Shown here: positions 9,483 to 24,932 of the stretch, piece by piece
How the letters are laid out: each line of letters opens with the position of its first letter
Position numbering within the stretch: position 1 is the first letter of the stretch
Position numbers and translations under genes: made by a program
Assembly: GCF_988243305.1 (NCBI RefSeq)
Contig: NZ_OZ547136.1
Length of the DNA: 64,000 nucleotides
Strand: one strand, 5' to 3'
Notes under the pieces: model-generated
What the model was told of the DNA's origin: nothing
What the model saw: only the letters and a program-made list of their open reading frames with translations
The model's database searches: none

Positions 9483-9952
9483 TGAATCCACTGAAAGCCG
9501 GTGATATCGCACCGAAATTTAGCTTGCCGGATCAAGACGGAGAACAAGTTAATTTGACCGACTTCCAGGGACAGCGTGTTCTGGTTTATTTCTACCCGAA
9601 AGCCATGACCCCCGGCTGTACCGTACAGGCCTGCGGCTTACGCGATAACATGGATGAGTTGAAAAAAGCGGGCGTTGATGTGCTGGGTATCAGCACCGAT
9701 AAACCCGAAAAACTCTCCCGTTTTGCGGAAAAAGAGCTGCTTAACTTTACGCTCCTGTCTGATGAGGACCACCAGGTGTGCGAACAATTCGGCGTCTGGG
9801 GTGAAAAGTCCTTCATGGGCAAAACCTACGATGGTATTCATCGCATCAGCTTCCTGATTGACGCTGATGGCAAAATCGAACATGTCTTTGACGATTTCAA
9901 AACCAGCAATCACCACGACGTTGTGCTGAACTGGCTGAAAGAACACGCCTGA
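9482..9952 (+). CDS. bcp: thiol peroxidase Bcp (peroxiredoxin)
   Basis: 156-aa ORF with a peroxiredoxin active site around PGCT; start overlaps the gcvR stop. Confidence 0.9.
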   Translation: MNPLKAGDIAPKFSLPDQDGEQVNLTDFQGQRVLVYFYPKAMTPGCTVQACGLRDNMDELKKAGVDVLGISTDKPEKLSRFAEKELLNFTLLSDEDHQVCEQFGVWGEKSFMGKTYDGIHRISFLIDADGKIEHVFDDFKTSNHHDVVLNWLKEHA

Positions 9953-10146
9953 TTACTTTGCTCCATTCCGTGCTGGCTGCGCTTGCGGTCAGCACACCTC
10001 ACTTCTCGTGATCAAGATCACATTCTCGCTTTCCCCTGCGACACGGGTGTCGAATTCATTTTTTGCTGAACGTTAATGACCATCATTTTTGTACCGTTCA
10101 GAATCCAGTTAATACATAACTTATTGAATATATTAAATTAATCAGA

Positions 10147-10163
10147 CTGGCATCCTTTATGCA
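10147..10163 (+). promoter_or_regulatory. sigma54 (RpoN) -24/-12 promoter of the hyf operon
   Basis: cTGGCATcctttaTGCAa matches the TGGCAC-N5-TTGCA consensus with correct GG-to-GC spacing, about 40 nt upstream of the hyfA start; an adjacent sigma54 activator gene (hyfR) is in the operon. Confidence 0.6.
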
Positions 10164-10204
10164 ATATGAAATGCAATGTTTCATATCATTTTCAAGGAGC
10201 CGAC

Positions 10205-10822
10205 ATGAACCGCTTTGTGGTGGCCGAACCACTGTGGTGTACAGGATGTAATACCTGTCTCGCTGCCTGTTCGGACGTGCATAAAACGCAAGGTTTACAG
10301 CAACACCCGCGCCTGGCCCTGGCGAAGACGTCAACACTCACTGCCCCTGTCGTGTGTCATCACTGTGAGGAAGCCCCTTGCCTGCAGGTCTGCCCGGTCA
10401 ATGCCATCTCCCAGAGGGATGATGCGATCCAACTCAACGAAAGCCTTTGTATTGGCTGCAAGCTTTGCGCCGTGGTCTGCCCATTTGGCGCAATCAGCGC
10501 TACAGGAAGCCGTCCGGTGAATGCCCCTGCGCAATATGTTTTTCAGTCTGAGGGCTCACTCAAAGACGGAGAAGTAAACGCGCCGACCCAACATGCTTTG
10601 CTGCGCTGGGAACCGGGTGTCCAGACCGTCGCGGTGAAATGCGACCTGTGTGATTTCTTGCCAGGAGGTCCGGCCTGCGTTCGCGCTTGCCCGAATCAGG
10701 CGTTACGGCTGATCACCGACGATAGCCTGCAACGTCAGATGAAAGAAAAACAGCGCCTTGCCGCAAGCTGGTTTGCCAATGGCGGGGAGGATCCCCTTTC
10801 CCTCACTCAGGAGCAACGCTAA
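10205..10822 (+). CDS. hyfA: hydrogenase-4 component A, 4Fe-4S ferredoxin-type subunit
   Basis: ORF 10166..10822; multiple CxxCxxCxxxCP ferredoxin motifs; start at the internal Met (MNRFVVAEP). Confidence 0.85.
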   Translation: MNRFVVAEPLWCTGCNTCLAACSDVHKTQGLQQHPRLALAKTSTLTAPVVCHHCEEAPCLQVCPVNAISQRDDAIQLNESLCIGCKLCAVVCPFGAISATGSRPVNAPAQYVFQSEGSLKDGEVNAPTQHALLRWEPGVQTVAVKCDLCDFLPGGPACVRACPNQALRLITDDSLQRQMKEKQRLAASWFANGGEDPLSLTQEQR

Positions 10823-12840
10823 TGGATGCCCTGCAATTATTAACCTGGTCGCTGATCCTCTATCTGTTTGCCAGTCTGGCTTCGCTGTTTTTACTCGGTC
10901 TGGACAGACTGGCTATTAAGCTTTCCGGCATCACATCGCTGGTGGGTGGCGTGATTGGCATCATCAGCGGAATTACGCAATTACATGCAGGCGTAACTTT
11001 AGTCGCCCGTTTTGCCACGCCTTTTGACTTTGCCGATTTAACCCTGCGAATGGATAGCCTCTCGGCATTTATGGTGCTGGTTTTCTCCTTGCTGGTGGTG
11101 GTTTGTTCGCTCTATTCATTGACTTATATGCGCGAATACGAGGGCAAAGGCGCGGCGGCGATGGGCTTCTTTATGAATCTTTTCATCGCATCGATGGTTG
11201 CCCTGCTGGTGATGGACAACGCTTTTTGGTTCATCGTGCTGTTTGAAATGATGTCGCTGTCTTCCTGGTTTCTGGTCATTGCCAGGCAGGATAAAACGTC
11301 AATCAACGCTGGCATGCTCTACTTTTTTATCGCCCACGCCGGATCGGTGCTGATTATGATCGCCTTCTTGCTGATGTGGCGCGAAAGCGGCAGCCTCGAT
11401 TTTGCCAGTTTCCGCACGCTTTCACTTTCTCCGGGGCTGGCGTCGGCGGTGTTCCTGCTGGCCTTCTTCGGTTTTGGCGCGAAAGCCGGGATGATGCCGT
11501 TGCACAGCTGGTTGCCACGCGCTCACCCTGCCGCACCATCGCACGCTTCGGCGTTGATGTCTGGCGTAATGGTCAAAATCGGTATTTTCGGCATCCTGAA
11601 AGTAGCGATGGACCTGCTGGCGCAAACGGGTTTGCCGCTGTGGTGGGGCATTCTGGTGATGGCGATCGGCGCAATCTCCGCGCTCCTGGGCGTGCTGTAT
11701 GCGCTGGCGGAACAGGATATCAAACGGCTGCTGGCCTGGAGTACCGTCGAAAACGTCGGCATTATTTTGCTGGCGGTCGGTGTGGCGATGGTCGGTCTGT
11801 CACTGCACGACCCGCTGCTCACCGTTGTTGGACTGCTCGGCGCGCTGTTTCATCTGCTCAACCATGCGCTGTTCAAAGGGCTGCTGTTTCTCGGCGCGGG
11901 CGCGATTATTTCGCGTTTGCATACCCACGACATGGAAAAAATGGGGGCACTGGCAAAACGGATGCCGTGGACAGCCGCAGCATGCCTGATTGGTTGCCTC
12001 GCGATATCAGCCATTCCTCCGCTGAATGGTTTTATCAGCGAATGGTACACCTGGCAGTCGCTGTTCTCACTAAGTCGTGTGGAAGCCGTAGCGCTACAAC
12101 TTGCGGGTCCTATTGCTATGGTGATGCTGGCAGTCACTGGTGGGCTGGCAGTAATGTGCTTCGTCAAAATGTACGGTATTACTTTCTGTGGAGCGCCGCG
12201 CAGTACACACGCTGAAGAGGCACAGGAAGTGCCAAATACGATGATCGTCGCCATGCTACTGCTCGCGGCACTCTGCGTATTCATTGCGCTTAGTGCCAGT
12301 TGGCTAGCACCGAAGATAATGCACATTGCCCATGCGTTTACCAATACCCCTCCCGTCACTGTCGCCAGCGGAATAGCACTTGTACCCGGCACGTTTCATA
12401 CACGGGTCACTCCCTCATTACTGTTGCTGTTACTACTGGCAATGCCTTTGCTGCCTGGCCTTTACTGGCTATGGTGTCGTTCGCGCCGCGCAGCGTTTCG
12501 TCGCACAGGAGATGCCTGGGCATGCGGCTACGGCTGGGAAAATGCGATGGCCCCGTCAGGCAATGGCGTGATGCAGCCGCTGCGTGTGGTCTTTTGTGCG
12601 CTATTTCGTCTACGACAACAGCTCGACCCTACGCTGAGGCTGAACAAAGGTCTTGCGCACGTCACCGCCAGGGCTCAGAGCACAGAACCCTTCTGGGATG
12701 AGCGGGTGATCCGCCCCATCGTGAGCGCCACCCAACGGCTGGCCAAAGAAGTACAGCATCTGCAAAGCGGCGACTTTCGTCTCTATTGCCTGTATGTGGT
12801 TGCCGCACTGGTTGTGCTGCTAATCGCTATTGCCGTCTAA
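10822..12840 (+). CDS. hyfB: hydrogenase-4 component B, antiporter-like membrane subunit (NuoL/MnhA-like)
   Basis: 672-aa polytopic membrane ORF with the antiporter-subunit motif WLPxAH. Confidence 0.85.
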   Translation: MDALQLLTWSLILYLFASLASLFLLGLDRLAIKLSGITSLVGGVIGIISGITQLHAGVTLVARFATPFDFADLTLRMDSLSAFMVLVFSLLVVVCSLYSLTYMREYEGKGAAAMGFFMNLFIASMVALLVMDNAFWFIVLFEMMSLSSWFLVIARQDKTSINAGMLYFFIAHAGSVLIMIAFLLMWRESGSLDFASFRTLSLSPGLASAVFLLAFFGFGAKAGMMPLHSWLPRAHPAAPSHASALMSGVMVKIGIFGILKVAMDLLAQTGLPLWWGILVMAIGAISALLGVLYALAEQDIKRLLAWSTVENVGIILLAVGVAMVGLSLHDPLLTVVGLLGALFHLLNHALFKGLLFLGAGAIISRLHTHDMEKMGALAKRMPWTAAACLIGCLAISAIPPLNGFISEWYTWQSLFSLSRVEAVALQLAGPIAMVMLAVTGGLAVMCFVKMYGITFCGAPRSTHAEEAQEVPNTMIVAMLLLAALCVFIALSASWLAPKIMHIAHAFTNTPPVTVASGIALVPGTFHTRVTPSLLLLLLLAMPLLPGLYWLWCRSRRAAFRRTGDAWACGYGWENAMAPSGNGVMQPLRVVFCALFRLRQQLDPTLRLNKGLAHVTARAQSTEPFWDERVIRPIVSATQRLAKEVQHLQSGDFRLYCLYVVAALVVLLIAIAV

Positions 12841-12850
12841 GGAAATCACC

Positions 12851-13798
12851 ATGAGACAAACTCTTTGCGACGGATATCTGATCATTTTTGCGTTAGCACA
12901 GGCCGTGATTCTGCTGGTGCTAACCCCGCTTTTTACGGGGATTTCCCGGCAGATACGCGCGCGAATGCACTCCCGTCGCGGACCGGGGATCTGGCAGGAT
13001 TATCGCGATATCCACAAACTGTTTAAACGCCAGGAAGTTGCGCCGACATCTTCAGGTCTGATGTTCCGCCTGATGCCGTGGGTATTAATCAGCAGCATGC
13101 TGGTGCTGGCGATGGCCCTACCACTATTTATTACCGTTTCCCCTTTTGCGGGCGGCGGCGATCTGATCACCCTTATCTATCTTCTTGCCCTGTTTCGTTT
13201 TTTCTTTGCTCTTTCAGGGCTGGATACCGGAAGCCCGTTTGCGGGAGTCGGTGCCAGTCGCGAGTTGACGCTCGGCATTCTGGTCGAACCCATGCTCATT
13301 CTCTCAATGCTGGTATTGGCGCTGATAGCGGATTCCACGCATATCGAGATGATCAGCAAGACGCTGGCGACGGGCTGGAACTCGCCGCTAACCACCGTAC
13401 TGGCGTTACTGGCCTGTGGTTTTGCCTGCTTCATTGAGATGGGAAAAATTCCCTTTGATGTTGCTGAAGCAGAACAGGAATTACAGGAAGGCCCGCTAAC
13501 CGAATATTCCGGTGCCGGGCTGGCGCTAGCGAAATGGGGGCTGGGGCTGAAACAGGTCGTGATGGCAGCACTGTTTGTGGCCCTGTTTCTGCCCTTTGGG
13601 CGCGCGCAAGAACTTTCTCTCGCCTGCCTGCTGACTTCACTTGTCGTTACGCTGCTCAAGGTTTTGCTGATTTTTGTACTGGCCTCAATCGCAGAAAACA
13701 CGCTGGCACGCGGGCGTTTTTTACTCATTCACCATGTGACCTGGCTTGGCTTCAGCCTTGCTGCGCTTGCATGGGTCTTCTGGTTAACCGGTCTGTAA
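12851..13798 (+). CDS. hyfC: hydrogenase-4 component C, NuoH/HycD-like membrane subunit
   Basis: ORF 12830..13798; polytopic membrane protein; start probably at the internal Met (MRQTLCDGY). Confidence 0.8.
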   Translation: MRQTLCDGYLIIFALAQAVILLVLTPLFTGISRQIRARMHSRRGPGIWQDYRDIHKLFKRQEVAPTSSGLMFRLMPWVLISSMLVLAMALPLFITVSPFAGGGDLITLIYLLALFRFFFALSGLDTGSPFAGVGASRELTLGILVEPMLILSMLVLALIADSTHIEMISKTLATGWNSPLTTVLALLACGFACFIEMGKIPFDVAEAEQELQEGPLTEYSGAGLALAKWGLGLKQVVMAALFVALFLPFGRAQELSLACLLTSLVVTLLKVLLIFVLASIAENTLARGRFLLIHHVTWLGFSLAALAWVFWLTGL

Positions 13799-13814
13799 GG
13801 AGCACTGACGGAAT

Positions 13815-15254
13815 ATGGAAAATCTTGCTCTGACGACGTTAATGCTGCCTTTTATCGGCGCACTGGTCGTTTCGTTTTCGCCACAACGTCGGGCCGCCGA
13901 ATGGGGGGTTTTGTTCGCCGCGCTGACCACGCTGTGCATGTTGTCACTGATCTCCGCGTTTTATCAGGCCGATAAAGTTGCCGTCACGTTGACGTTGGTC
14001 AACGTGGGGGATGTGGCGTTGTTTGGCCTGGTCATTGATCGCGTGAGTACGCTGATTCTGTTTGTGGTGGTGTTTCTCGGTTTGCTGGTCACGATCTACT
14101 CCACGGGTTATCTGACGGATAAAAATCGCGAACACCCGCATAACGGCACGAATCGTTATTACGCATTTTTGCTGGTGTTTATCGGCGCGATGGCGGGACT
14201 GGTACTCTCTTCGACGCTGCTCGGTCAGTTGTTGTTTTTTGAAATTACGGGCGGCTGCTCCTGGGCGTTGATCAGTTATTACCAGAGCGATAAAGCGCAG
14301 CGTTCGGCACTAAAAGCGTTGCTTATTACCCATATCGGTTCGCTGGGGTTGTATCTTGCCGCCGCCACGCTGTTTTTGCAGACCGGAACGTTTGCGCTTA
14401 GCGCGATGAGCGAGTTACACGGCGACGCACGTTATCTGGTTTATGGCGGCATCCTGTTTGCCGCGTGGGGGAAATCGGCCCAGCTACCGATGCAAGCGTG
14501 GCTACCGGATGCAATGGAAGCGCCAACACCGATCAGCGCCTATCTCCACGCCGCATCGATGGTGAAAGTGGGCGTTTACATTTTTGCCCGTGCCATTATC
14601 GACGGCGGCAATATCCCGCATGTGATTGGCGGCGTTGGCATGGTTATGGCACTGGTCACCATTCTTTATGGCTTCCTGATGTATTTGCCACAGCAGGATA
14701 TGAAGCGGTTGCTGGCCTGGTCGACCATCACTCAACTTGGCTGGATGTTTTTCGGCTTGTCGCTCTCCATCTTCGGCTCGCGGCTGGCGCTGGAGGGTAG
14801 CATCGCTTACATCGTCAACCACGCGTTCGCTAAAAGCCTGTTTTTCCTTGTAGCAGGTGCGCTGAGTTACAGCTGCGGCACGCGCTTGTTGCCGCGTCTG
14901 CGTGGCGTATTGCACACCCTGCCGTTGCCAGGCGTGGGTTTCTGCGTGGCAGCGCTGGCAATTACCGGCGTGCCGCCGTTCAACGGCTTCTTCAGTAAAT
15001 TCCCGCTGTTTGCTGCCGGTTTTGCGTTGTCAGTGGAGTACTGGATCCTGCTGCCCGCCATGATTCTGCTGATGATTGAATCGGTCGCCAGTTTCGCCTG
15101 GTTTATTCGCTGGTTTGGTCGCGTCGTGCCTGGCAAACCTAGCGAGGCCGTCGCCGATGCCGCTCCGCTGCCAGGATCAATGCGCCTGGTGTTGATTGTA
15201 CTGATTGTGATGTCGCTGATTTCCAGCGTAATCGCCGCGACCTGGTTGCAGTAA
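13815..15254 (+). CDS. hyfD: hydrogenase-4 component D, antiporter-like membrane subunit
   Basis: 479-aa membrane ORF with the WLPDAMEAPTP motif. Confidence 0.85.
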   Translation: MENLALTTLMLPFIGALVVSFSPQRRAAEWGVLFAALTTLCMLSLISAFYQADKVAVTLTLVNVGDVALFGLVIDRVSTLILFVVVFLGLLVTIYSTGYLTDKNREHPHNGTNRYYAFLLVFIGAMAGLVLSSTLLGQLLFFEITGGCSWALISYYQSDKAQRSALKALLITHIGSLGLYLAAATLFLQTGTFALSAMSELHGDARYLVYGGILFAAWGKSAQLPMQAWLPDAMEAPTPISAYLHAASMVKVGVYIFARAIIDGGNIPHVIGGVGMVMALVTILYGFLMYLPQQDMKRLLAWSTITQLGWMFFGLSLSIFGSRLALEGSIAYIVNHAFAKSLFFLVAGALSYSCGTRLLPRLRGVLHTLPLPGVGFCVAALAITGVPPFNGFFSKFPLFAAGFALSVEYWILLPAMILLMIESVASFAWFIRWFGRVVPGKPSEAVADAAPLPGSMRLVLIVLIVMSLISSVIAATWLQ

Positions 15255-15265
15255 GGAGATGATGA

Positions 15266-15916
15266 ATGACCGGTTCTATGATCGTAAATAATCTGGCAGG
15301 ACTGATGATGCTGACATCGCTGTTTGTGATTAGCGTCAAAAGCTATCGCCTGTCATGCGGATTTTACGCCTGCCAGTCACTGGTGCTGGTGTCTATTTTC
15401 GCCACCCTCTCGTGCCTGTTCGCCGCAGAGCAACTGCTGATCTGGTCCGCCAGCGCCTTTATCACCAAAGTGCTGCTGGTGCCGTTAATCATGACTTACG
15501 CTGCACGAAATATTCCCCAGAACATCCCGGAAAAAGCGTTATTCGGTCCGGCAATGATGACACTGCTCGCGGCGTTAATTGTCCTGCTTTGCGCATTTGT
15601 CGTTCAGCCCGTGAAGCTACCGATGGCTACCGGGCTGAAACCGGCGCTGGCGGTGGCGTTAGGTCATTTTCTGCTTGGCCTGCTGTGCATTGTCAGCCAG
15701 CGCAATATCCTGCGGCAAATCTTTGGTTACTGCCTGCTGGAAAACGGCTCCCATCTGGTGCTGTCGCTTCTAGCCTGGCGTGCACCGGAACTGGTGGAAA
15801 TTGGTATCGCTACCGACGCCATCTTCGCCGTCATTGTAATGGTGTTACTGGCAAGAAAAATATGGCGTACCCACGGCACGCTGGACGTGAACAACTTGAC
15901 CGCGCTGAAGGGATAA
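15266..15916 (+). CDS. hyfE: hydrogenase-4 component E, membrane subunit
   Basis: 216-aa hydrophobic ORF at the expected position. Confidence 0.8.
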
Positions 15917-15920
15917 TGAG

Positions 15921-17501
15921 ATGAGTTATTCTGTGATGTTCGCTTTACTCCTGCTCACGCCGCTGCTTTTTTCGCTGCTCTGTTTTGCCTGCCGAAAACG
16001 GGGGCACTCTGCGACTCGCGCGGTGACAGTATTACATAGCTTAGGGATCACACTGCTGCTGATTCTGGCACTCTGGGTGGTCCAAACTGCCGCTGATGCG
16101 GGAGAAATATTCGCTGCGGGACTGTGGCTTCATATTGATGGTCTGGGCGGTTTGTTCCTCGCCATTCTTGGTGTGATTGGCTTTCTCACCGGTGTTTACT
16201 CGATTGGCTACATGCGTCATGAAGTGGAGCACGGCGAGCTTTCACCCGTTACGCTGTGCGATTACTACGGTTTCTTCCATCTGTTTTTGTTCACCATGCT
16301 GCTGGTTGTTACCAGCAATAACCTGATTGTGATGTGGGCGGCGATCGAAGCCACCACCTTAAGCTCGGCGTTTCTGGTAGGCATTTACGGTCAGCGTTCA
16401 TCGCTGGAAGCTGCATGGAAGTACATCATTATTTGTACTGTTGGTGTCGCTTTTGGTCTGTTCGGTACCGTGCTGGTATACGCCAACGCCGCCAGCGTTA
16501 TGCCGCAGGCAGAAATGGCGATATTCTGGAGCGAGGTTCTTAAGCAATCGTCCTTGCTTGACCCAACATTAATGCTGTTGGCCTTTGTGTTTGTGCTAAT
16601 TGGCTTTGGCACTAAAACCGGGCTATTCCCCATGCACGCCTGGCTGCCAGATGCTCACAGTGAAGCGCCGAGTCCGGTCAGCGCCCTGCTCTCCGCCGTA
16701 TTGCTGAACTGCGCGCTGTTGGTGCTTATTCGCTATTACATCATTATTTGCCAGGCCATCGGCAGCGATTTCCCCAACCGGTTGTTGCTCATCTTCGGCA
16801 TGTTGTCGGTTGCCGTGGCGGCATTTTTCATTCTGGTACAGCGGGACATTAAGCGTCTGCTGGCGTACTCCAGCGTGGAGAACATGGGACTGGTCGCGGT
16901 GGCGCTAGGCATTGGCGGGCCGCTGGGAATTTTTGCCGCGCTGCTGCACACCTTAAACCACAGTCTGGCAAAAACGCTGTTGTTCTGCGGTTCCGGCAAT
17001 GTACTGCTCAAGTACGGCACGCGCGATCTCAACGTCGTCTGCGGAATGCTTAAAATCATGCCATTTACCGCCGTGTTGTTTGGCGGCGGTGCGCTGGCGC
17101 TGGCCGGGATGCCGCCCTTCAACATTTTTCTTAGCGAATTTATGACCGTTACCGCCGGACTGGCGCGTAATCATCTGCTGCTTATCGTCCTGCTGTTATT
17201 GCTGTTAACGCTGGTGCTGGCGGGCCTGGTACGGATGGCTGCGCGGGTGTTAATGGCGAAACCGCCGCAGGCCGTTAACCGGGGTGAACTTGGCTGGTTG
17301 ACCACCTCGCCAATGGTGATTCTGCTGGTCATGATGCTGGCGATGGGAACGCATATTCCACAACCTGTCATCAGGATCCTGGCGGGCGCTTCCACTATAG
17401 TCCTCTCAGGGACGCACGACCTGCCTGCACAACGTAGCACCTGGCATGATTTTTTGCCTTCAGGCACCGCATCTGTTTCGGAGAAACACAGTGAACGTTA
17501 A
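15921..17501 (+). CDS. hyfF: hydrogenase-4 component F, antiporter-like membrane subunit
   Basis: 526-aa membrane ORF with the [12 protein letters not shown] motif. Confidence 0.85.
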
Positions 17502-19206
17502 TTCATCGTCAAATCGTGGCGAAGCGATTCTCGCCGCCCTGAAAACGCAGTTCCCCGGCGCGGTGCTGGATGAAGAGCGACAAACGCCTGAACAGGTCAC
17601 CATTACGGTGAAAATCAATCTGCTGCCTGACGTTGTGCATTATCTTTATTATCAACATGATGGCTGGCTTCCAGTCCTGTTTGGCAACGACGAGCGGACA
17701 CTTAACGGTCATTACGCGGTTTATTATGCCCTTTCTATGGAAGGGGCCGAAAAATGCTGGATCGTGGTGAAGGCACTGGTCGATGCCGACAGTCGGGAGT
17801 TTCCGTCAGTCACACCGCGCGTCCCTGCCGCGGTCTGGGGCGAGCGAGAAATTCGCGATATGTACGGGCTGATTCCGGTTGGCCTGCCGGATCAGCGTCG
17901 CCTGGTGTTGCCCGATGACTGGCCGGAAGATATGCATCCGCTGCGCAAAGATGCGATGGATTATCGACTGCGCCCTGAACCGACGACTGATTCCGAAACG
18001 TATCCGTTTATCAATGAGGGCAACAGCGATGCGCGGGTGATCCCTGTCGGCCCGATGCATATCACCTCCGATGAACCGGGTCACTTCCGCTTGTTTGTGG
18101 ATGGCGAGCAAATTGTCGATGCTGATTACCGCCTGTTTTATGTCCATCGCGGCATGGAGAAACTGGCAGAAACGCGGATGGGCTACAACGAAGTGACCTT
18201 CTTATCCGACCGCGTGTGTGGGATTTGCGGTTTTGCCCACAGTGTGGCCTATACCAACTCGGTTGAAAATGCACTGGGGATTGAGGTGCCGCAACGAGCG
18301 CATACTATTCGCTCGATTCTGCTGGAAGTCGAACGGCTGCATAGTCATTTGCTCAACCTTGGCCTCTCCTGCCATTTTGTTGGTTTTGATACCGGCTTTA
18401 TGCAATTTTTCCGCGTGCGGGAAAAGTCGATGACGATGGCGGAATTGCTGACCGGGTCGCGTAAAACCTACGGTCTGAATCTGATTGGTGGTGTTCGCCG
18501 CGATATTCTCAAAGAGCAACGTCTGCAAACGCTGAAACTGGTGCGCGAGATGCGCGCCGACGTGTCGGAGCTGGTAGAGATGCTACTTGCCACGCCGAAT
18601 ATGGAACAACGCACTCAGGGCATTGGCATTCTCGACCGACAAATCGCCCGTGATTATAGCCCCGTAGGGCCGCTGATCCGCGGCAGTGGTTTTGCCCGTG
18701 ATTTGCGCTTTGATCACCCCTACGCCGACTACGGCAATATTCCCAAAACGCTGTTTACCTTTACCGGCGGCGATGTCTTCTCCCGCGTGATGGTCCGTGT
18801 CAAAGAGACGTTTGATTCGCTGGCAATGCTGGAATTTGCCCTCGACAACATGCCAGATACCCCACTGCTGACCGAAGGCTTTAGCTATAAACCTCACGCA
18901 TTCGCGCTGGGCTTTGTTGAAGCGCCACGTGGTGAAGACGTGCACTGGAGCATGCTCGGTGATAACCAAAAATTGTTCCGCTGGCGCTGTCGTGCCGCCA
19001 CCTACGCCAACTGGCCAGTGCTGCGTTACATGCTGCGCGGCAATACCGTTTCTGACGCACCGCTAATTATCGGTAGCCTTGATCCCTGCTACTCCTGTAC
19101 CGACCGTGTGACGCTGGTTGATGTGCGCAAGCGCCAGTCAAAAACCGTGCCGTATAAAGAGATCGAACGCTACGGCATTGATCGTAACCGTTCGCCGCTG
19201 AAGTAA
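17491..19206 (+). CDS. hyfG: hydrogenase-4 large [NiFe] catalytic subunit
   Basis: ORF 17446..19206; N-terminal RVCGICG and C-terminal DPCYSCTDR Ni-Fe ligand motifs; start uncertain, probably the GTG at 17491 overlapping the hyfF end. Confidence 0.8.
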
Positions 19207-19215
19207 GGACAGAAA

Positions 19216-19761
19216 ATGCTGAAGTTACTTAAAACTATTATGCGCGCCGGAACCGCGACGGTGAAATATCCCTTCGCGCCACTGGAGGTCAGCCCAGGCT
19301 TTCGCGGGAAACCGGACCTGATGCCCAGCCAATGTATTGCCTGCGGTGCCTGCGCCTGTGCTTGTCCGGCAAATGCGCTGACTATCCAGACCGACGACCA
19401 GCAAAATACGCGCACCTGGCAGCTCTATCTGGGGCGTTGTATTTACTGCGGACGTTGTGAAGAAGTGTGCCCGACCAGAGCCATCCAGCTTACCAATAAC
19501 TTTGAACTGACCGTCACCAATAAAGCCGATCTCTATACCCGCGCGACGTTCCATCTACAACGTTGCAGCCGTTGCGAACGCCCGTTTGCCCCGCAAAAAA
19601 CCGTCGCACTGGCTGCTGAATTGTTGGCACAGCAACAAAATGCGCCACAAAACCGCGAAATGTTATGGGCGCAAGCGAGCGTCTGCCCGGAATGCAAACA
19701 ACACGCGACGCTGATTAACGACAACACAGATGTACCGCTGGTGGCTAAGGAGCAGCTATGA
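19216..19761 (+). CDS. hyfH: hydrogenase-4 component H, 4Fe-4S ferredoxin-type subunit
   Basis: 181-aa ORF with two CxxCxxCxxxCP motifs. Confidence 0.85.
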
Positions 19762-20516
19762 GTCCAGTGCTTACACAACATGTCAGCCAGCCCATCACGC
19801 TGGACGAGCAAACGCAAAAGATGAAGCGGCATTTGCTACAGGATATCCGTCGCTCAGCCTACGTTTATCGCGTCGATTGCGGCGGCTGCAACGCCTGTGA
19901 AATCGAAATTTTTGCCGCCATCACACCAGTATTCGACGCAGAACGTTTTGGCATTAAGGTTGTTTCATCACCGCGTCACGCCGATATTTTGTTATTTACT
20001 GGCGCAGTCACCCGGGCGATGCGTATGCCTGCACTTCGGGCGTATGAGTCTGCCCCCGATCATAAAATTTGTGTTTCCTACGGCGCGTGCGGTGTCGGCG
20101 GCGGTATTTTCCACGATCTTTACAGCGTCTGGGGCGGCAGCGACACCATTGTCCCCATTGATGTTTGGATCCCCGGCTGCCCGCCAACACCGGCCGCCAC
20201 CATTCACGGTTTCGCCGTGGCGCTCGGTTTGCTGCAACAGAAGATTCACGCGGTGGATTATCGCGATCCCACCGGGGTGACCATGCAACCGCTGTGGCCG
20301 CAGATCCCGCCATCACAGCGTATCGCCGTTGAGCGAGAAGCGCGGCGGCTGGCGGGCTATCGTCAAGGGCGAGAAATTTGCGATCGACTCCTGCGCCATT
20401 TAAGCGACGATCCTACAGGAAATCGGGTTAACACCTGGTTGCGCGAAGCCGACGATCCGCGTCTCAATAGTATCGTTCAGCAACTCTTTCGCGTTCTCCG
20501 GGGGTTACATGGCTGA
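19758..20516 (+). CDS. hyfI: hydrogenase-4 small subunit (NuoB-like)
   Basis: 252-aa ORF with NuoB-type cysteine motifs ([12 protein letters not shown]). Confidence 0.85.
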
Positions 20517-20922
20517 GGAGTGCAGGGAAATTGTTTTCTGGACGCTGCGAAAAAAATTTATCGCCAGTAGCGACGAGATGCCGGAACACAGCTCCCAGGT
20601 AATGTATTACTCGTTGGCTATCGGCCATCACGTTGGCGTGATTGATTGTCTGAATGTCGCCTTCCGCTGCCCACTGACGGAATACGAAGATTGGCTTGCA
20701 CTGGTCGAAGAGGAGCAAGCCCGACGTAAGATGCTGGGGGTGATGACTTTTGGTGAGATTGTTATTGACACCAGCCACACCGCCCTGTTGACCCGGGCAT
20801 TCGCGCCACTGGCAGATGACGCGACGTCGGCGTGGCAGGCGCGTAGCATTCAATTCATTCATCTGTTGGATGAAATTGTGCAGGAACCGGCTATCTATCT
20901 GATGGCCAGAAAAATTGCGTGA
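20509..20922 (+). CDS. hyfJ: hydrogenase-4 component J (HycH-like maturation/assembly factor)
   Basis: 137-aa ORF between hyfI and hyfR. Confidence 0.75.
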
Positions 20923-20951
20923 GAAGGATTTCTCATTAATAAGGACTGTTG

Positions 20952-22964
20952 ATGGCTATGTCAGACGAGGCGATGTTTGCCCCGCCGCAAGGAATAACAA
21001 TTGAAGCGGTAAACGGAATGCTCGCGGAGCGGTTAGCGCAGAAACACGGCAAGGCGTCTTTATTACGCGCCTTCATCCCGCTGCCGCCGCCGTTCAGCCC
21101 GGTACAACTTATTGAACTGCACGTTCTCAAAAGCAACTTCTATTACCGCTACCATGATGATGGCAGCGATGTGACGGCAACAGCAGAGTATCAGGGCGAG
21201 ATGGTCGATTATTCGCGTCACGCCGTCCTTCTCGGCAGTAGTGGAATGGCGGAGCTACGCTTTATTCGCACTCACGGCAGCCGTTTTACTCCCCAGGATT
21301 GCACACTGTTTAACTGGCTGGCGCGGATAATCACCCCGGTTCTGCAATCATGGCTCAATGATGAAGAACAGCAGGTGGCGCTGCGTTTGCTGGAGAAAGA
21401 TCGCGATCATCATCGGGTACTGGTGGATATCACTAATGCAGTATTGTCACATCTTGATCTCGACGATCTGATCGCTGACGTCGCTCGTGAGATCCATCAT
21501 TTTTTCGGTCTGGCTTCAGTCAGTATGGTACTGGGCGATCATCGAAAGAACGAGAAGTTCAGCCTGTGGTGCAGCGATCTTTCTGCCTCACATTGTGCGT
21601 GTCTGCCACGCTGTATGCCTGGCGAAAGTGTATTGCTGACACAAACGCTACAAACCCGACAACCGACCTTGACGCACCGTGCAGACGATCAGTTTCTCTG
21701 GCAACGCGACCCGTTATTACACTTACTTGCATCTAACGGCTGCGAATCTGCGCTCCTTATACCGCTCACCTTTGGCAACCATACACCGGGTGCATTGTTG
21801 CTGGCGCATACCTCTTCCACTCTCTTTAGTGAGGAAAACTGCCAACTACTACAACATATTGCCGATCGCATCGCTATTGCCGTTGGCAATGCCGATGCCT
21901 GGCGCAGCATGACCGATTTGCAGGAAAGCTTGCAGCAAGAAAACCACCAGCTTAGCGAGCAGCTCCTTTCGAATCTGGGCGTCGGTGACATTATCTATCA
22001 AAGCCAGGCAATGGAAGATTTGCTCCAGCAGGTAGATATTGTGGCGAAGAGCGACAGTACGGTGTTGATTTGTGGTGAAACCGGAACCGGCAAAGAGGTG
22101 ATCGCCAGAGCGATCCATCAACTTAGCCCACGACGCGACAAGCCACTGGTCAAAATCAACTGCGCTGCCATCCCCGCCAGTCTTCTGGAAAGTGAGTTAT
22201 TCGGCCATGACAAAGGGGCATTTACTGGTGCGATTAATACCCATCGTGGTCGTTTTGAAATTGCCGATGGCGGCACGTTGTTTCTCGATGAAATTGGCGA
22301 TCTGCCGTTAGAACTTCAGCCTAAACTGCTGCGCGTATTGCAGGAACGGGAAATTGAGCGTCTCGGCGGGAGTAGAACGATCCCGGTAAATGTCAGAGTC
22401 ATTGCCGCCACCAACCGTGATTTGTGGCAAATGGTTGAAGATCGCCAGTTTCGCAGCGATCTCTTTTATCGCCTGAATGTCTTCCCACTGGAACTGCCGC
22501 CACTGCGCGACCGTCCGGAAGATATCCCTCTTTTAGCAAAGCATTTCACGCAAAAAATGGCGCGCCATATGAATCGCGCAATTGACGCCATCCCGACCGA
22601 GGCGCTACGCCAGTTGATGTCGTGGGACTGGCCGGGCAACGTGCGCGAGCTGGAAAACGTGATTGAGCGAGCGGTACTACTGACTCGCGGTAAAAGTCTG
22701 AATTTACATCTTAATGTCCGACAAAGCCGTTTACTGCCGACGCTAAATGAAGATTCAGCGCTTCGCAGTTCAATGGCGCAGTTGCTGCACCCGACGACGC
22801 CAGAGAATGACGAAGAAGAACGTCAGCGCATTGTTCAGGTATTGCGAGAAACCAATGGCATTGTTGCCGGGCCCCGTGGCGCAGCGACGCGATTAGGGAT
22901 GAAGCGCACCACGCTGCTGTCACGAATGCAGCGGCTGGGGATCTCGGTTCGCGAGGTGTTGTAA
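20952..22964 (+). CDS. hyfR: sigma54-dependent transcriptional activator HyfR (FhlA family)
   Basis: ORF 20949..22964; AAA+ sigma54-interaction domain (GETGTGKE Walker A, GAFTGA motif) and a C-terminal HTH. Confidence 0.9.
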
Positions 22965-22985
22965 TCTGCTTTTGCAGGAGTATGC

Positions 22986-23834
22986 ATGAGAAACAAACTC
23001 TCTTTCGACTTGCAGTTGAGTGCCAGAAAAGCGGCAATCGCTGAACGGATTGCCGCCCATAAAATTGCCCGCAGTAAAGTGTCGGTCTTTTTAATGGCGA
23101 TGTCCGCTGGCGTGTTTATGGCGATCGGATTTACTTTTTACCTTACCGTTATCGCCGATGCCCCGTCTTCACAGGCATTAACCCATCTGGTGGGCGGCCT
23201 TTGCTTTACACTTGGCTTTATTTTGCTGGCGGTTTGCGGCACCAACCTGTTCACCTCGTCGGTAATGACGGTAATGGCAAAAAGTCGGGGCGTTATTAGT
23301 TGGCGAACTTGGCTGATTAACGCACTTCTGGTGGCCTGCGGTAATCTGGCAGGTATTGCCTGTTTCAGTTTGTTAATCTGGTTTTCCGGGCTGGTGATGA
23401 GTGAAAACGCGATGTGGGGAGTCGCGGTTTTACACTGCGCCGAGGGCAAAATGCATCATACATTTACTGAATCAGTCAGCCTCGGCATTATGTGCAATCT
23501 GATGGTTTGTCTGGCGCTGTGGATGAGTTATTGCGGACGTTCGTTATGCGACAAAATCGTCGCCATGATTTTGCCCATCATCCTGTTTGTCGCCAGTGGT
23601 TTTGAGCACTGTATCGCCAATTTGTTTGTGATTCCGTTCGCCATTGCCATTCGCCATTTCGCCCCTACCTCCTTCTGGCAACTGGCGCACAGTAGCGCAG
23701 ACAATTTTCCGGTACTGACGGTCAGCCATTTTATTACCGCCAATCTGCTCCCGGTGATGCTGGGTAATATTATCGGCGGTGCAGTGCTGGTGAGTATTTG
23801 TTATCGGGCTATTTATTTACATCAGGAACCCTAA
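22986..23834 (+). CDS. focB: formate channel FocB (FNT family)
   Basis: 282-aa membrane ORF of the formate/nitrite transporter family; last gene of the hyf operon. Confidence 0.85.
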   Translation: MRNKLSFDLQLSARKAAIAERIAAHKIARSKVSVFLMAMSAGVFMAIGFTFYLTVIADAPSSQALTHLVGGLCFTLGFILLAVCGTNLFTSSVMTVMAKSRGVISWRTWLINALLVACGNLAGIACFSLLIWFSGLVMSENAMWGVAVLHCAEGKMHHTFTESVSLGIMCNLMVCLALWMSYCGRSLCDKIVAMILPIILFVASGFEHCIANLFVIPFAIAIRHFAPTSFWQLAHSSADNFPVLTVSHFITANLLPVMLGNIIGGAVLVSICYRAIYLHQEP

Positions 23835-23837
23835 AAA

Positions 23838-23867
23838 TCAGCCCGGCGAAACAGTTCGTCGGGCTGA
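23838..23867. terminator. bidirectional intrinsic terminator hairpin (focB / perM convergent)
   Basis: cagcccggcgaaacagttcgtcgggctg forms a 7-bp GC-rich stem between convergent genes. Confidence 0.55.
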
Positions 23868-23870
23868 AGA

Positions 23871-24932
23871 TTATTCTTGCGCGATTTGCCCATCGGGCCA
23901 GGCGTGAATCACGGCTTTGATCAGCGTCGCCAATGGAATGGCGAAGAATACGCCCCAGAATCCCCACAAACCACCGAAGATCACTACTGATAAAATAATG
24001 ACCAGCGGATGCAGGTTAACCGCTTCGGAGAACAACACAGGTACTAACAGGTTGCCGTCCAGCGCCTGAATGATCAGATACACCGCGAAGCAGCTCCAGA
24101 ATTCCGTGCCAGCACCAAACTGGAATAGCGCCACGCCAACCACCGGAATGGTCACCACAAATGCACCAATGTACGGAATAAGTACCGAGAAGCCGACCAG
24201 CACCGCCAGCAGCAGCGAATAGTTCAGCCCGAAGAGTAAGAATCCCAGCCAGGTGGCGATCCCCACCACGATCATCTCCAGCACTTTGCCGCGGATATAG
24301 TTGGTGATTTGTTGATTCATCTCCTTCCATACCTGTCCTGCCAGTCCACGGTTACGTGGCAGCACCCGGCGAACGGCGTTCAGCATCTGCTCTTTGTCTT
24401 TCAGCAGGAAGAAGACCATCAATGGCACCAGCACCAGATAGACAGCTATGGTCAGCAAACCGACCAGCGAGGCGAGGGAAATTTTCACCACCGAATCGCC
24501 CATGGTCAGCATCCGACTGCGCATATTTTCGGCCATTGCATCAATAATGCCCGCATCCATCAACGCCGGATAGCGGCGCGGCAACGTGGCGGCAAAGTCA
24601 GAAAGCTTATTGAGCATCCCCGGCATATCGCGAATTAAGTAGATGCCCTGCTGCCAGGCGATAGGCAATACCACGAACGCCATCAGTAGCAATATACCGA
24701 CGAAAACCACCAATACAATCGACGTCGCCCAGCGGCGGGAGCAGCCAATAGATTGCAGGCGCACGGTTGGCCATTCCAGCAAATAGGCCAGCACAATAGC
24801 CACCAGCAACGGAGCAAGCAGGCCACTAAAGAAAAAGATAATGCCAAATCCGGCAACTAAAATAACCAGCAAGGCAATCGCTTCCGGGTCGCTAAAACGG
24901 CGGCGATACCATTGCATCAACATTTCGAGCAT
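23871..24932 (-). CDS. perM: AI-2E family putative permease PerM (YfgO)
   Basis: 353-aa polytopic membrane ORF; conserved synteny. Confidence 0.8.
   Translation of the reverse strand: MLEMLMQWYRRRFSDPEAIALLVILVAGFGIIFFFSGLLAPLLVAIVLAYLLEWPTVRLQSIGCSRRWATSIVLVVFVGILLLMAFVVLPIAWQQGIYLIRDMPGMLNKLSDFAATLPRRYPALMDAGIIDAMAENMRSRMLTMGDSVVKISLASLVGLLTIAVYLVLVPLMVFFLLKDKEQMLNAVRRVLPRNRGLAGQVWKEMNQQITNYIRGKVLEMIVVGIATWLGFLLFGLNYSLLLAVLVGFSVLIPYIGAFVVTIPVVGVALFQFGAGTEFWSCFAVYLIIQALDGNLLVPVLFSEAVNLHPLVIILSVVIFGGLWGFWGVFFAIPLATLIKAVIHAWPDGQIAQE

Follow-up and report, generated by a model that had tools for sequence, protein, structure and literature searches.

Does the silence of hydrogenase-4 (Hyd-4) in Escherichia coli belong to the enzyme, or to the strains in which its hyf operon has been studied? 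The E. coli formate hydrogenlyase-2 (FHL-2), of which Hyd-4 is the hydrogenase module, has been called a 'long-standing mystery' (Lindenstrauss and Pinske 2019). We take up this question with the hyf locus on a 64,000-nucleotide stretch of contig NZ_OZ547136.1 (RefSeq assembly GCF_988243305.1), hereafter the window. With a probability of roughly 0.93, we regard the region as the chromosomal hyf locus of a non-K-12 E. coli, coding for HyfA–HyfJ, HyfR and FocB behind a sigma54 promoter and representing an ancestral, undamaged copy. Operon and promoter are already textbook knowledge, and finding them is by itself ordinary and adds nothing new. The new point comes from comparison: the window holds an undamaged hyf, and in the K-12 reference, on which all the functional work was done, the catalytic subunit has suffered a deletion. 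An intact hyf is an unusual state, untrue of the K-12 reference and of most E. coli sampled. This could not be recognized in the original prediction, a model's reading of the letters without database searches, because it is visible only by comparison.

The locus, hyfABCDEFGHIJ-hyfR-focB, spans 10205–23834 on the plus strand. All 12 genes are open, with zero internal stop codons by open reading frame (ORF) listing and translation, and comprise the following features.

10205–10822, plus strand: hyfA, 205 amino acids (aa), 4Fe-4S ferredoxin-type subunit, with Shine-Dalgarno AAGGAG at 10194–10199.
10822–12840, plus strand: hyfB, 672 aa, antiporter-like membrane subunit (Pfam Proton_antipo_M, E = 3e-54), without the 1-bp deletion at 11412.
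12851–13798, plus strand: hyfC, 315 aa, NuoH-like membrane subunit (Pfam NADHdh).
13815–15254, plus strand: hyfD, 479 aa, antiporter-like membrane subunit (Pfam Proton_antipo_M, E = 3e-54).
15266–15916, plus strand: hyfE, 216 aa, NuoK-like membrane subunit (Pfam Oxidored_q2).
15921–17501, plus strand: hyfF, 526 aa, antiporter-like membrane subunit (Pfam Proton_antipo_M, E = 1e-55).
17491–19206, plus strand: hyfG, GTG start, 571 aa, full-length [NiFe] large subunit (Pfam Complex1_30kDa, Complex1_49kDa, NiFeSe_Hases).
18646–18693, plus strand: 48-bp segment coding for HyfG residues 386–401 (16 aa), present in the window and deleted in K-12.
19216–19761, plus strand: hyfH, 181 aa, 2x[4Fe-4S] subunit (Pfam Fer4_7) with both CxxCxxCxxxCP motifs intact, without the 6-bp deletion at 19346.
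19758–20516, plus strand: hyfI, 252 aa, [NiFe] small subunit, NuoB-like (Pfam Oxidored_q6), without the 1-bp deletion at 20105.
20509–20922, plus strand: hyfJ, 137 aa, HycH-like maturation protein (Pfam HycH, E = 1e-56).
20952–22964, plus strand: hyfR, 670 aa, FhlA-related sigma54-dependent activator (Pfam GAF, Sigma54_activat with E = 5e-75, AAA_lid_14).
22986–23834, plus strand: focB, 282 aa, formate channel (Pfam Form_Nir_trans, E = 5e-64).

The decisive difference between this locus and its K-12 counterpart lies in hyfG, the only gene of the locus whose product length departs from that in K-12: HyfG has 571 aa in the window and 555 aa in K-12 MG1655. The 48 bp deleted in K-12 are flanked by a 10-bp direct repeat, GCCCGTGATT, at 18646–18655 and 18694–18703, and a loss between such repeats is, on its sequence, the signature of a slippage deletion. 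HyfG of the window aligns without gaps to HycE in PDB 7z0s (E = 2.5e-292), with the 16-aa segment placed opposite ARDFSNVGPMVRASGH. The segment occurs in all ~110 group-4a large subunits from other genera, where 10 of its 16 positions are invariant, and the only gapped sequences in the group-4a alignment are the short forms of E. coli. It further aligns gap-free to the GPxxRxSG element of the 49-kDa/ND7/NuoCD subunits of complex I, from bacteria to mitochondria. Because the segment is shared with HycE, with other genera and with complex I, the long HyfG is ancestral and K-12 has lost a conserved element of the core. Residue 321 marks a second departure of K-12 HyfG from an invariant position (T321I), being Ile there and Thr in the window and in all 30 aligned homologues. 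AlphaFold2 models of the long and short HyfG (mean predicted local distance difference test scores of 55.8 and 58.4) were too poor to inform on the structural effect of the deletion and were set aside.

Both forms of hyfG are common. Searches of 5426 complete E. coli genomes recovered the 48-bp segment in 2179 and the deletion junction in 2113, among them MG1655, BW2952 and XL1-Blue; the surrounding part of hyfG was present in 4294. The hyfG literature that we retrieved does not mention an internal hyfG deletion, with most papers in subscription journals lying outside this coverage, so that an earlier description is possible. A literature search on hyf pseudogenes turned up only the known absence of the operon from one phylogroup, hyfABCDEFGHIJ being specifically absent from B2 (Touchon et al. 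2009).

In other respects HyfG of the window has the features of a group-4a [NiFe] large subunit. Both CxxC ligand pairs for the Ni-Fe site are kept, in RVCGIC (residue 241) and DPCYSC (residue 531), the latter followed by the C-terminal assembly peptide R-VTLV..., and the alignment with HycE is full-length. The remaining products support the complete 12-gene operon that had been predicted, with open frames, the expected gene order and Pfam domains for 12 of 12. HyfB, HyfD and HyfF, named as three antiporter-like subunits, each match Proton_antipo_M with E about 1e-54. HyfR, named as a sigma54 activator encoded within the operon, carries GAF and Sigma54_activat domains with GAFTGA at residue 422 and a C-terminal region that is helix-turn-helix-like. 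For hyfA, the longest ORF would begin at 10166; this start was rejected in favor of 10205, which is used in K-12 and has AAGGAG just upstream.

The setting of the locus is equally conventional. It lies between bcp and yfgO, a placement that is the same in every E. coli having hyf, and the synteny dapA-gcvR-bcp-hyf-yfgO-bepA is that of MG1655; the flanks in isolate AF40 agree too. Among 4291 complete E. coli genomes with an annotated hyf locus, AF40 comes closest to the window locus (99.5% identity), nearly all others reaching 95–99%, and the flank at 24000–46000 is ~98% identical to most E. coli.

The hyfG deletion is not the only lesion of hyf in the species. About 21% of complete genomes (~1130 of 5426) are without hyf. 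Where it is present, lesions were sampled by taking annotated loci at regular intervals along the hit lists (8 short-form and 9 long-form genomes), and additional pseudogenes were found in 6 of the 8 short-form and 5 of the 9 long-form loci. The idea that other decay of hyf tracks the hyfG deletion was thus rejected: pseudogenes occur with both forms, and lesions follow the overall haplogroup instead. Identical lesions are found on long- and short-hyfG backgrounds, which therefore points to recombination within the locus.

A 20-sequence alignment of the hyf locus (the window plus 19 sampled genomes) resolved these lesions. They include 1-bp deletions in hyfB (at 11412) and hyfI (at 20105), deletions of 208, 216 and 1 bp in hyfD, and deletions of 1 and 7 bp in focB. 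An in-frame 6-bp deletion in hyfH (19346–19351, between short repeats), carried by 4 of the 19 sampled genomes, changes the first ferredoxin motif from CxxCxxCxxxCP to CxxCxxCxCP; it is not flagged as a pseudogene by RefSeq, and judged from the lost spacing it probably damages cluster binding. Lesions are common to independently sequenced genomes and lie outside long homopolymers. Of the 5426 genomes, junction-specific searches showed 1264 to carry the frameshifted hyfB and 684 the frameshifted hyfI; both are real inherited alleles. Separately, the C-rich stretch of focB at 23660–23676 is hypervariable, with at least four in-frame or frameshifted versions that include the 1-bp and 7-bp deletions.

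The 20 loci fall into three haplogroups. Every locus of the K-12-like haplogroup (13/13) has at least one lesion, and every locus of the window's haplogroup (5/5: the window, AF40, WB61, 118UI and EcPF15), which is ~2% divergent from the others, is intact. A second, independent sample was drawn with a haplogroup marker at the focB stop codon, present in 779 genomes and exact in 587. All five exact-marker genomes in this sample were fully intact with a 571-aa HyfG, and one near-match variant of the marker had a stop codon in hyfI and a shortened hyfA. In total, 10 of 10 loci in the window's group are intact versus 13 of 13 lesioned in the K-12-like group, from small samples that are phylogenetically non-independent. 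The intact loci differ from one another by 0.5–1.6%.

Over the 12 genes, the ratio of nonsynonymous to synonymous polymorphism (pN/pS) stood at 0.116 for the intact loci, at 0.162 for the lesioned ones and at 0.11 when the two groups were compared, which shows historical purifying selection on hyf. We did not take these values as a sign of relaxed selection, since the gap between 0.116 and 0.162 is too small and the lesioned loci, being less diverged, confound the comparison. As a separate observation, window and AF40 have one and the same sequence between 9940 and about 19422, after which they differ at ~20 substitutions per kb over about 19422–21423, from the 3' end of hyfH to the 5' part of hyfR, an interval for which the sampled loci hold no close relative. 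The change near 19422 resembles a breakpoint of recombination within the operon.

What an undamaged allele would mean for Hyd-4 has to be weighed against a record of inactivity. HyfA–HyfJ are the ten subunits and assembly proteins of Hyd-4, with a complex I-like membrane arm, and the window allele may make an active enzyme. Several points weigh against this picture of a working operon. An RT-PCR (reverse transcription PCR) product across hyfJ-hyfR was reportedly not obtained, so hyfR-focB may be a separate unit. The operon contains no maturation protease gene. Since about a fifth of genomes are without hyf and many others have frameshifts in it, much of the species can do without the enzyme. 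Finally, K-12 hyf is expressed at very low levels from its native promoter, and Hyd-4 activity has not been demonstrated even with strong promoters (Finney et al. 2019, 2020; Lindenstrauss and Pinske 2019). In the latter experiments, the native promoter of K-12 hyf was exchanged for that of hyc or for T5 and the HycE C-terminal peptide was grafted onto HyfG (Finney et al. 2020); when promoter swaps and C-terminal engineering gave no activity in K-12, 'additional, unknown, biosynthetic problems' were invoked (Finney et al. 2020). Poor expression, a missing accessory gene and uncertain test conditions had been blamed earlier (Finney et al. 2019).

The hyfG deletion offers another way to read this record. 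The experiments would all have been made in K-12 derivatives, whose HyfG is without 16 universally conserved residues. About half of hyf-carrying E. coli share that deletion, the remaining K-12-like (A/B1-type) haplotypes carry other frameshifts, and the window haplotype has none of these lesions. On these grounds we consider it possible, though short of likely, that the 'silence' of Hyd-4 is a property of the strains studied rather than of the enzyme, and that the window haplotype encodes an active, possibly energy-conserving FHL-2. If so, repair of hyfG in K-12, or natural isolates of the window haplotype, would reveal Hyd-4 activity. The 16-residue deletion is a concrete and cheaply checkable candidate cause of the silence, and the window supplies one undamaged allele with which its effect could be tested. 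The deletion is relevant, too, to phenotypes that publications have ascribed to Hyd-4 from K-12 hyf mutants.

One rival holds that even an undamaged copy is cryptic, readable but not usefully expressed and of no physiological benefit, its intactness reflecting a lesion not yet accumulated; we give it a real, if minority, chance. It draws on the ~1130 genomes that are without hyf, a known trait of phylogroup B2, and on the abundance of independent loss-of-function alleles (the hyfG 48-bp deletion in 2113, the hyfB 1-bp deletion in 1264 and the hyfI 1-bp deletion in 684 genomes), together with the poor native expression reported in K-12 and the position of hyfR at the end of the very operon that HyfR activates. 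Against it, all ten sampled loci of the window's haplogroup are intact despite their mutual divergence, and the pN/pS of 0.116 within this group is unexpected under long neutral drift. Closely related hyf operons, moreover, supply Pectobacterium and Trabulsiella with their main H2-producing enzymes (Finney et al. 2019; Lindenstrauss and Pinske 2019), and expression of the Trabulsiella operon in an E. coli host yields activity (Lindenstrauss and Pinske 2019). The hyf locus also exemplifies how a species can lose a metabolic operon piece by piece.

For the expression of the undamaged copy, the following elements of the bcp-hyfA spacer and of the operon end are relevant.

9970–9995, no strand assigned: inverted repeat, hairpin after bcp.
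10007–10022, no strand assigned: candidate CRP-like palindrome cGTGA-TCAAGA-TCACa with perfect 6-bp arms (GTGATC/GATCAC), ~130 bp upstream of −24.
10039–10052, no strand assigned: inverted repeat CGACAC-GG-GTGTCG, candidate FhlA/HyfR enhancer (upstream activating sequence, UAS), ~100 bp upstream of −24.
10066–10101, no strand assigned: inverted repeat CTGAACGTTA ... TACCGTTCAG, its arms 16 nt apart, located after the candidate UAS and before the promoter.
10148–10163, plus strand: sigma54 promoter PhyfA, TGGCATCCTTTATGCA, with −24 TGGCAT and −12 TGCA, 42 bp upstream of the hyfA ATG and occurring once in the window.
10164–10186, no strand assigned: perfect 8-bp inverted repeat ATATGAAA-N7-TTTCATAT, directly 3' of −12 and across the expected start.
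10173–10176, plus strand: expected transcription start, ~31 nt upstream of the hyfA ATG.
23838–23867, plus strand: terminator-like hairpin with a 13-bp stem, between the convergent focB and yfgO, the top-scoring terminator-like site within 9900–24000.

In the mechanism that we propose, transcription would proceed from the sigma54 promoter at 10148–10163 and begin ~31 nt upstream of hyfA. Sigma54 holoenzyme would bind PhyfA and open it only with ATP hydrolysis by an enhancer-binding protein, FhlA or HyfR, probably seated at CGACAC-GG-GTGTCG. Short or overlapping junctions may couple translation along the operon, and the strong hairpin after focB would end it. The overlaps given in the original prediction for hyfH/hyfI (4 bp) and hyfI/hyfJ (8 bp) are exact, and hyfA/hyfB and hyfF/hyfG overlap by 1 and 11 bp, the remaining spacers measuring 4–29 bp; its proposal that the junctions are consistent with translational coupling is upheld by these tight or overlapping gene ends.

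The longest of these spacers (29 bp) separates hyfJ from hyfR, and with it comes the suggestion of two transcription units, hyfA–J being read from the sigma54 promoter and hyfR-focB from a weak promoter of its own inside or downstream of hyfJ. We regard this arrangement as conceivable rather than probable. An activator wholly dependent on its own target promoter would be hard to switch on, and the RT-PCR result mentioned above points the same way. Between hyfJ and hyfR, however, there is neither a terminator-like hairpin nor a sigma70-like match, and hyfABCDEFGHIJR-focB is given as one operon in the RegulonDB-style listings used by Shimada et al.

The −24/−12 sigma54 promoter predicted before hyfA holds up, both in its canonical spacing of GG and GC within TGGCATCCTTTATGCA and in its match to an experimentally bound K-12 site. 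The K-12 counterpart, ATGGCATCCTTTATGCA, differs from the window only at 10147, just 5' of TGG (C in the window, A in K-12). The K-12 hyf start was reportedly mapped by primer extension 30 bases upstream of hyfA, and transcription there is said to be dependent on sigma54, with rpoN dependence reported, and on FhlA, and to be activated by HyfR. The promoter core is unchanged in 18 of the 20 aligned strains. In chromatin immunoprecipitation sequencing (ChIP-seq), the K-12 site is the sigma54 peak OS23; its start is predicted 31 bp upstream of hyfA, and EcoCyc has the site as experimentally confirmed (Bonocora et al.). It is also the strongest peak genome-wide for RpoN holoenzyme in genomic systematic evolution of ligands by exponential enrichment (Shimada et al.). 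With a core identical to this bound sequence, the window promoter would be expected to bind sigma54 holoenzyme. The expected start follows the rule of Bonocora et al., 19 bp downstream from the midpoint of the motif (10155), which gives 10174. In E. coli O157:H7 (Z1830), the −24 GG has become GA at the equivalent of 10150, and a 1-bp insertion frameshifts hyfB at the equivalent of 11626, two independent hits in one operon.

Motif enrichment at the scale of the window was rejected as support. The loose pattern TGGC-N8-TGCW was seen 8 times versus 7.7 expected in the window. On a position weight matrix (PWM) built on 15 other K-12 sigma54 ChIP sites, TGGCATCCTTTATGCA scores 13.3 bits, a value reached somewhere in 98% of simulated 64-kb windows. 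The promoter is credible because of its position in the spacer and the K-12 experiments, not from the motif alone. That the TGGCAT-N6-TGCA match is chance, with hyfA transcribed from an unrecognised sigma70 promoter, is very improbable: by itself the motif is no rarer than chance at window scale, but the identical sequence is sigma54-bound in vivo and in vitro in K-12, the expected number of sites of at least this score is only 0.0065 for the 252-bp bcp-hyfA spacer read on its sense strand, and this spacer has no sigma70-like match.

Two further observations concern sigma54 motifs inside the operon. Seven of the eight TGGC-N8-TGCW matches (10148–22789) lie within the hyf locus, which makes up 21% of the window, and six of the seven are on the sense strand; this clustering may merely reflect the Leu/Ala/Phe-rich codons of membrane-protein genes. 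The top PWM match of the window, at 14.2 bits and so exceeding PhyfA, is ATGGCGCAGTTGCTGCA at 22773–22789 on the plus strand, in the 3' end of hyfR and 213 bp upstream of focB. All 20 E. coli loci keep it with slight changes, and the main text of Bonocora et al. names no ChIP peak in hyfR or focB. The match could be an intragenic sigma54 site, a focB promoter or chance.

Upstream of PhyfA, four inverted repeats in the spacer deserve mention, in addition to the 8-bp repeat across the expected start. The original prediction had called for a search for FhlA/HyfR-type enhancer sites, and a candidate emerged in CGACAC-GG-GTGTCG, which is unchanged in 20 strains; FhlA or HyfR may bind there, as suggested by related half-sites elsewhere. 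In K-12, TGTCG/CGACA half-sites form a cluster between hycA and hypA and also occur upstream of hydN and fdhF, all of these being upstream regions of sigma54 promoters. It is this recurrence upstream of hyc/hyp, hydN and fdhF, together with position and invariance, that makes the repeat a candidate enhancer. The palindrome at 10007–10022 is nearly invariant in the 20 hyf loci and resembles the CRP consensus TGTGA-N6-TCACA, which makes it a candidate site only. The inverted repeat between candidate UAS and promoter has one variable position among 20 strains. Two positions vary in ATATGAAA-N7-TTTCATAT, which could be an operator or a structure of the 5' untranslated region. The spacer gave no match to the IHF consensus WATCAR-N4-TTR.

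No Rfam match was found in or near the operon. The sole Rfam match in the window, the nucleoid-associated RNA naRNA4 derived from repetitive extragenic palindromic (REP) elements, lies at 1985–2062 on the plus strand (85.7 bits) and is unrelated to hyf.

Placed beside known systems, the window locus is closest to K-12 MG1655 hyf (b2481–b2492; Andrews et al. 1997; Skibinski et al. 2002), with which it shares its 12 genes, their order, flanks and overlaps, the promoter and the terminator. Protein identities are 96.6–99.8% and nucleotide divergence is ~2%; K-12 differs in a hyfG without 48 bp (16 aa), in HyfG T321I and in one base 5' of −24. The hyc operon for hydrogenase-3 (Hyd-3) of FHL-1 (PDB 7z0s) resembles hyf in the end-to-end alignment of HyfG with HycE, in the subunit types of the soluble arm and in a HycH-like protein, and both operons have a sigma54 promoter with TGTCG/CGACA-type elements upstream. 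Beyond hyc, hyf has HyfE and two extra antiporter-like subunits (HyfD and HyfF), and it encodes an activator of its own as well as a formate channel, whereas counterparts of the HycA anti-activator and HycI protease of the hyc system are missing from it. Hyd-3 accordingly has one antiporter-like subunit, and Hyd-4 here has three plus HyfE, a subunit specific to FHL-2 (Lindenstrauss and Pinske). The FHL-2 of Pectobacterium atrosepticum and Trabulsiella guamensis consists of the same subunits, five of them in the membrane arm, and the HyfG orthologues there, ~80% identical to that of the window, contain the 16-aa segment. Unlike E. coli hyf, their operons include the protease gene hyfK and adjoin hyp and fdhF, and activity has been shown for them. 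With complex I (NuoCD/49-kDa, NuoL/M/N), hyf shares a module architecture; where complex I has a quinone site, hyf has a [NiFe] site reducing protons, and HyfG has the Ni-Fe ligand cysteines.

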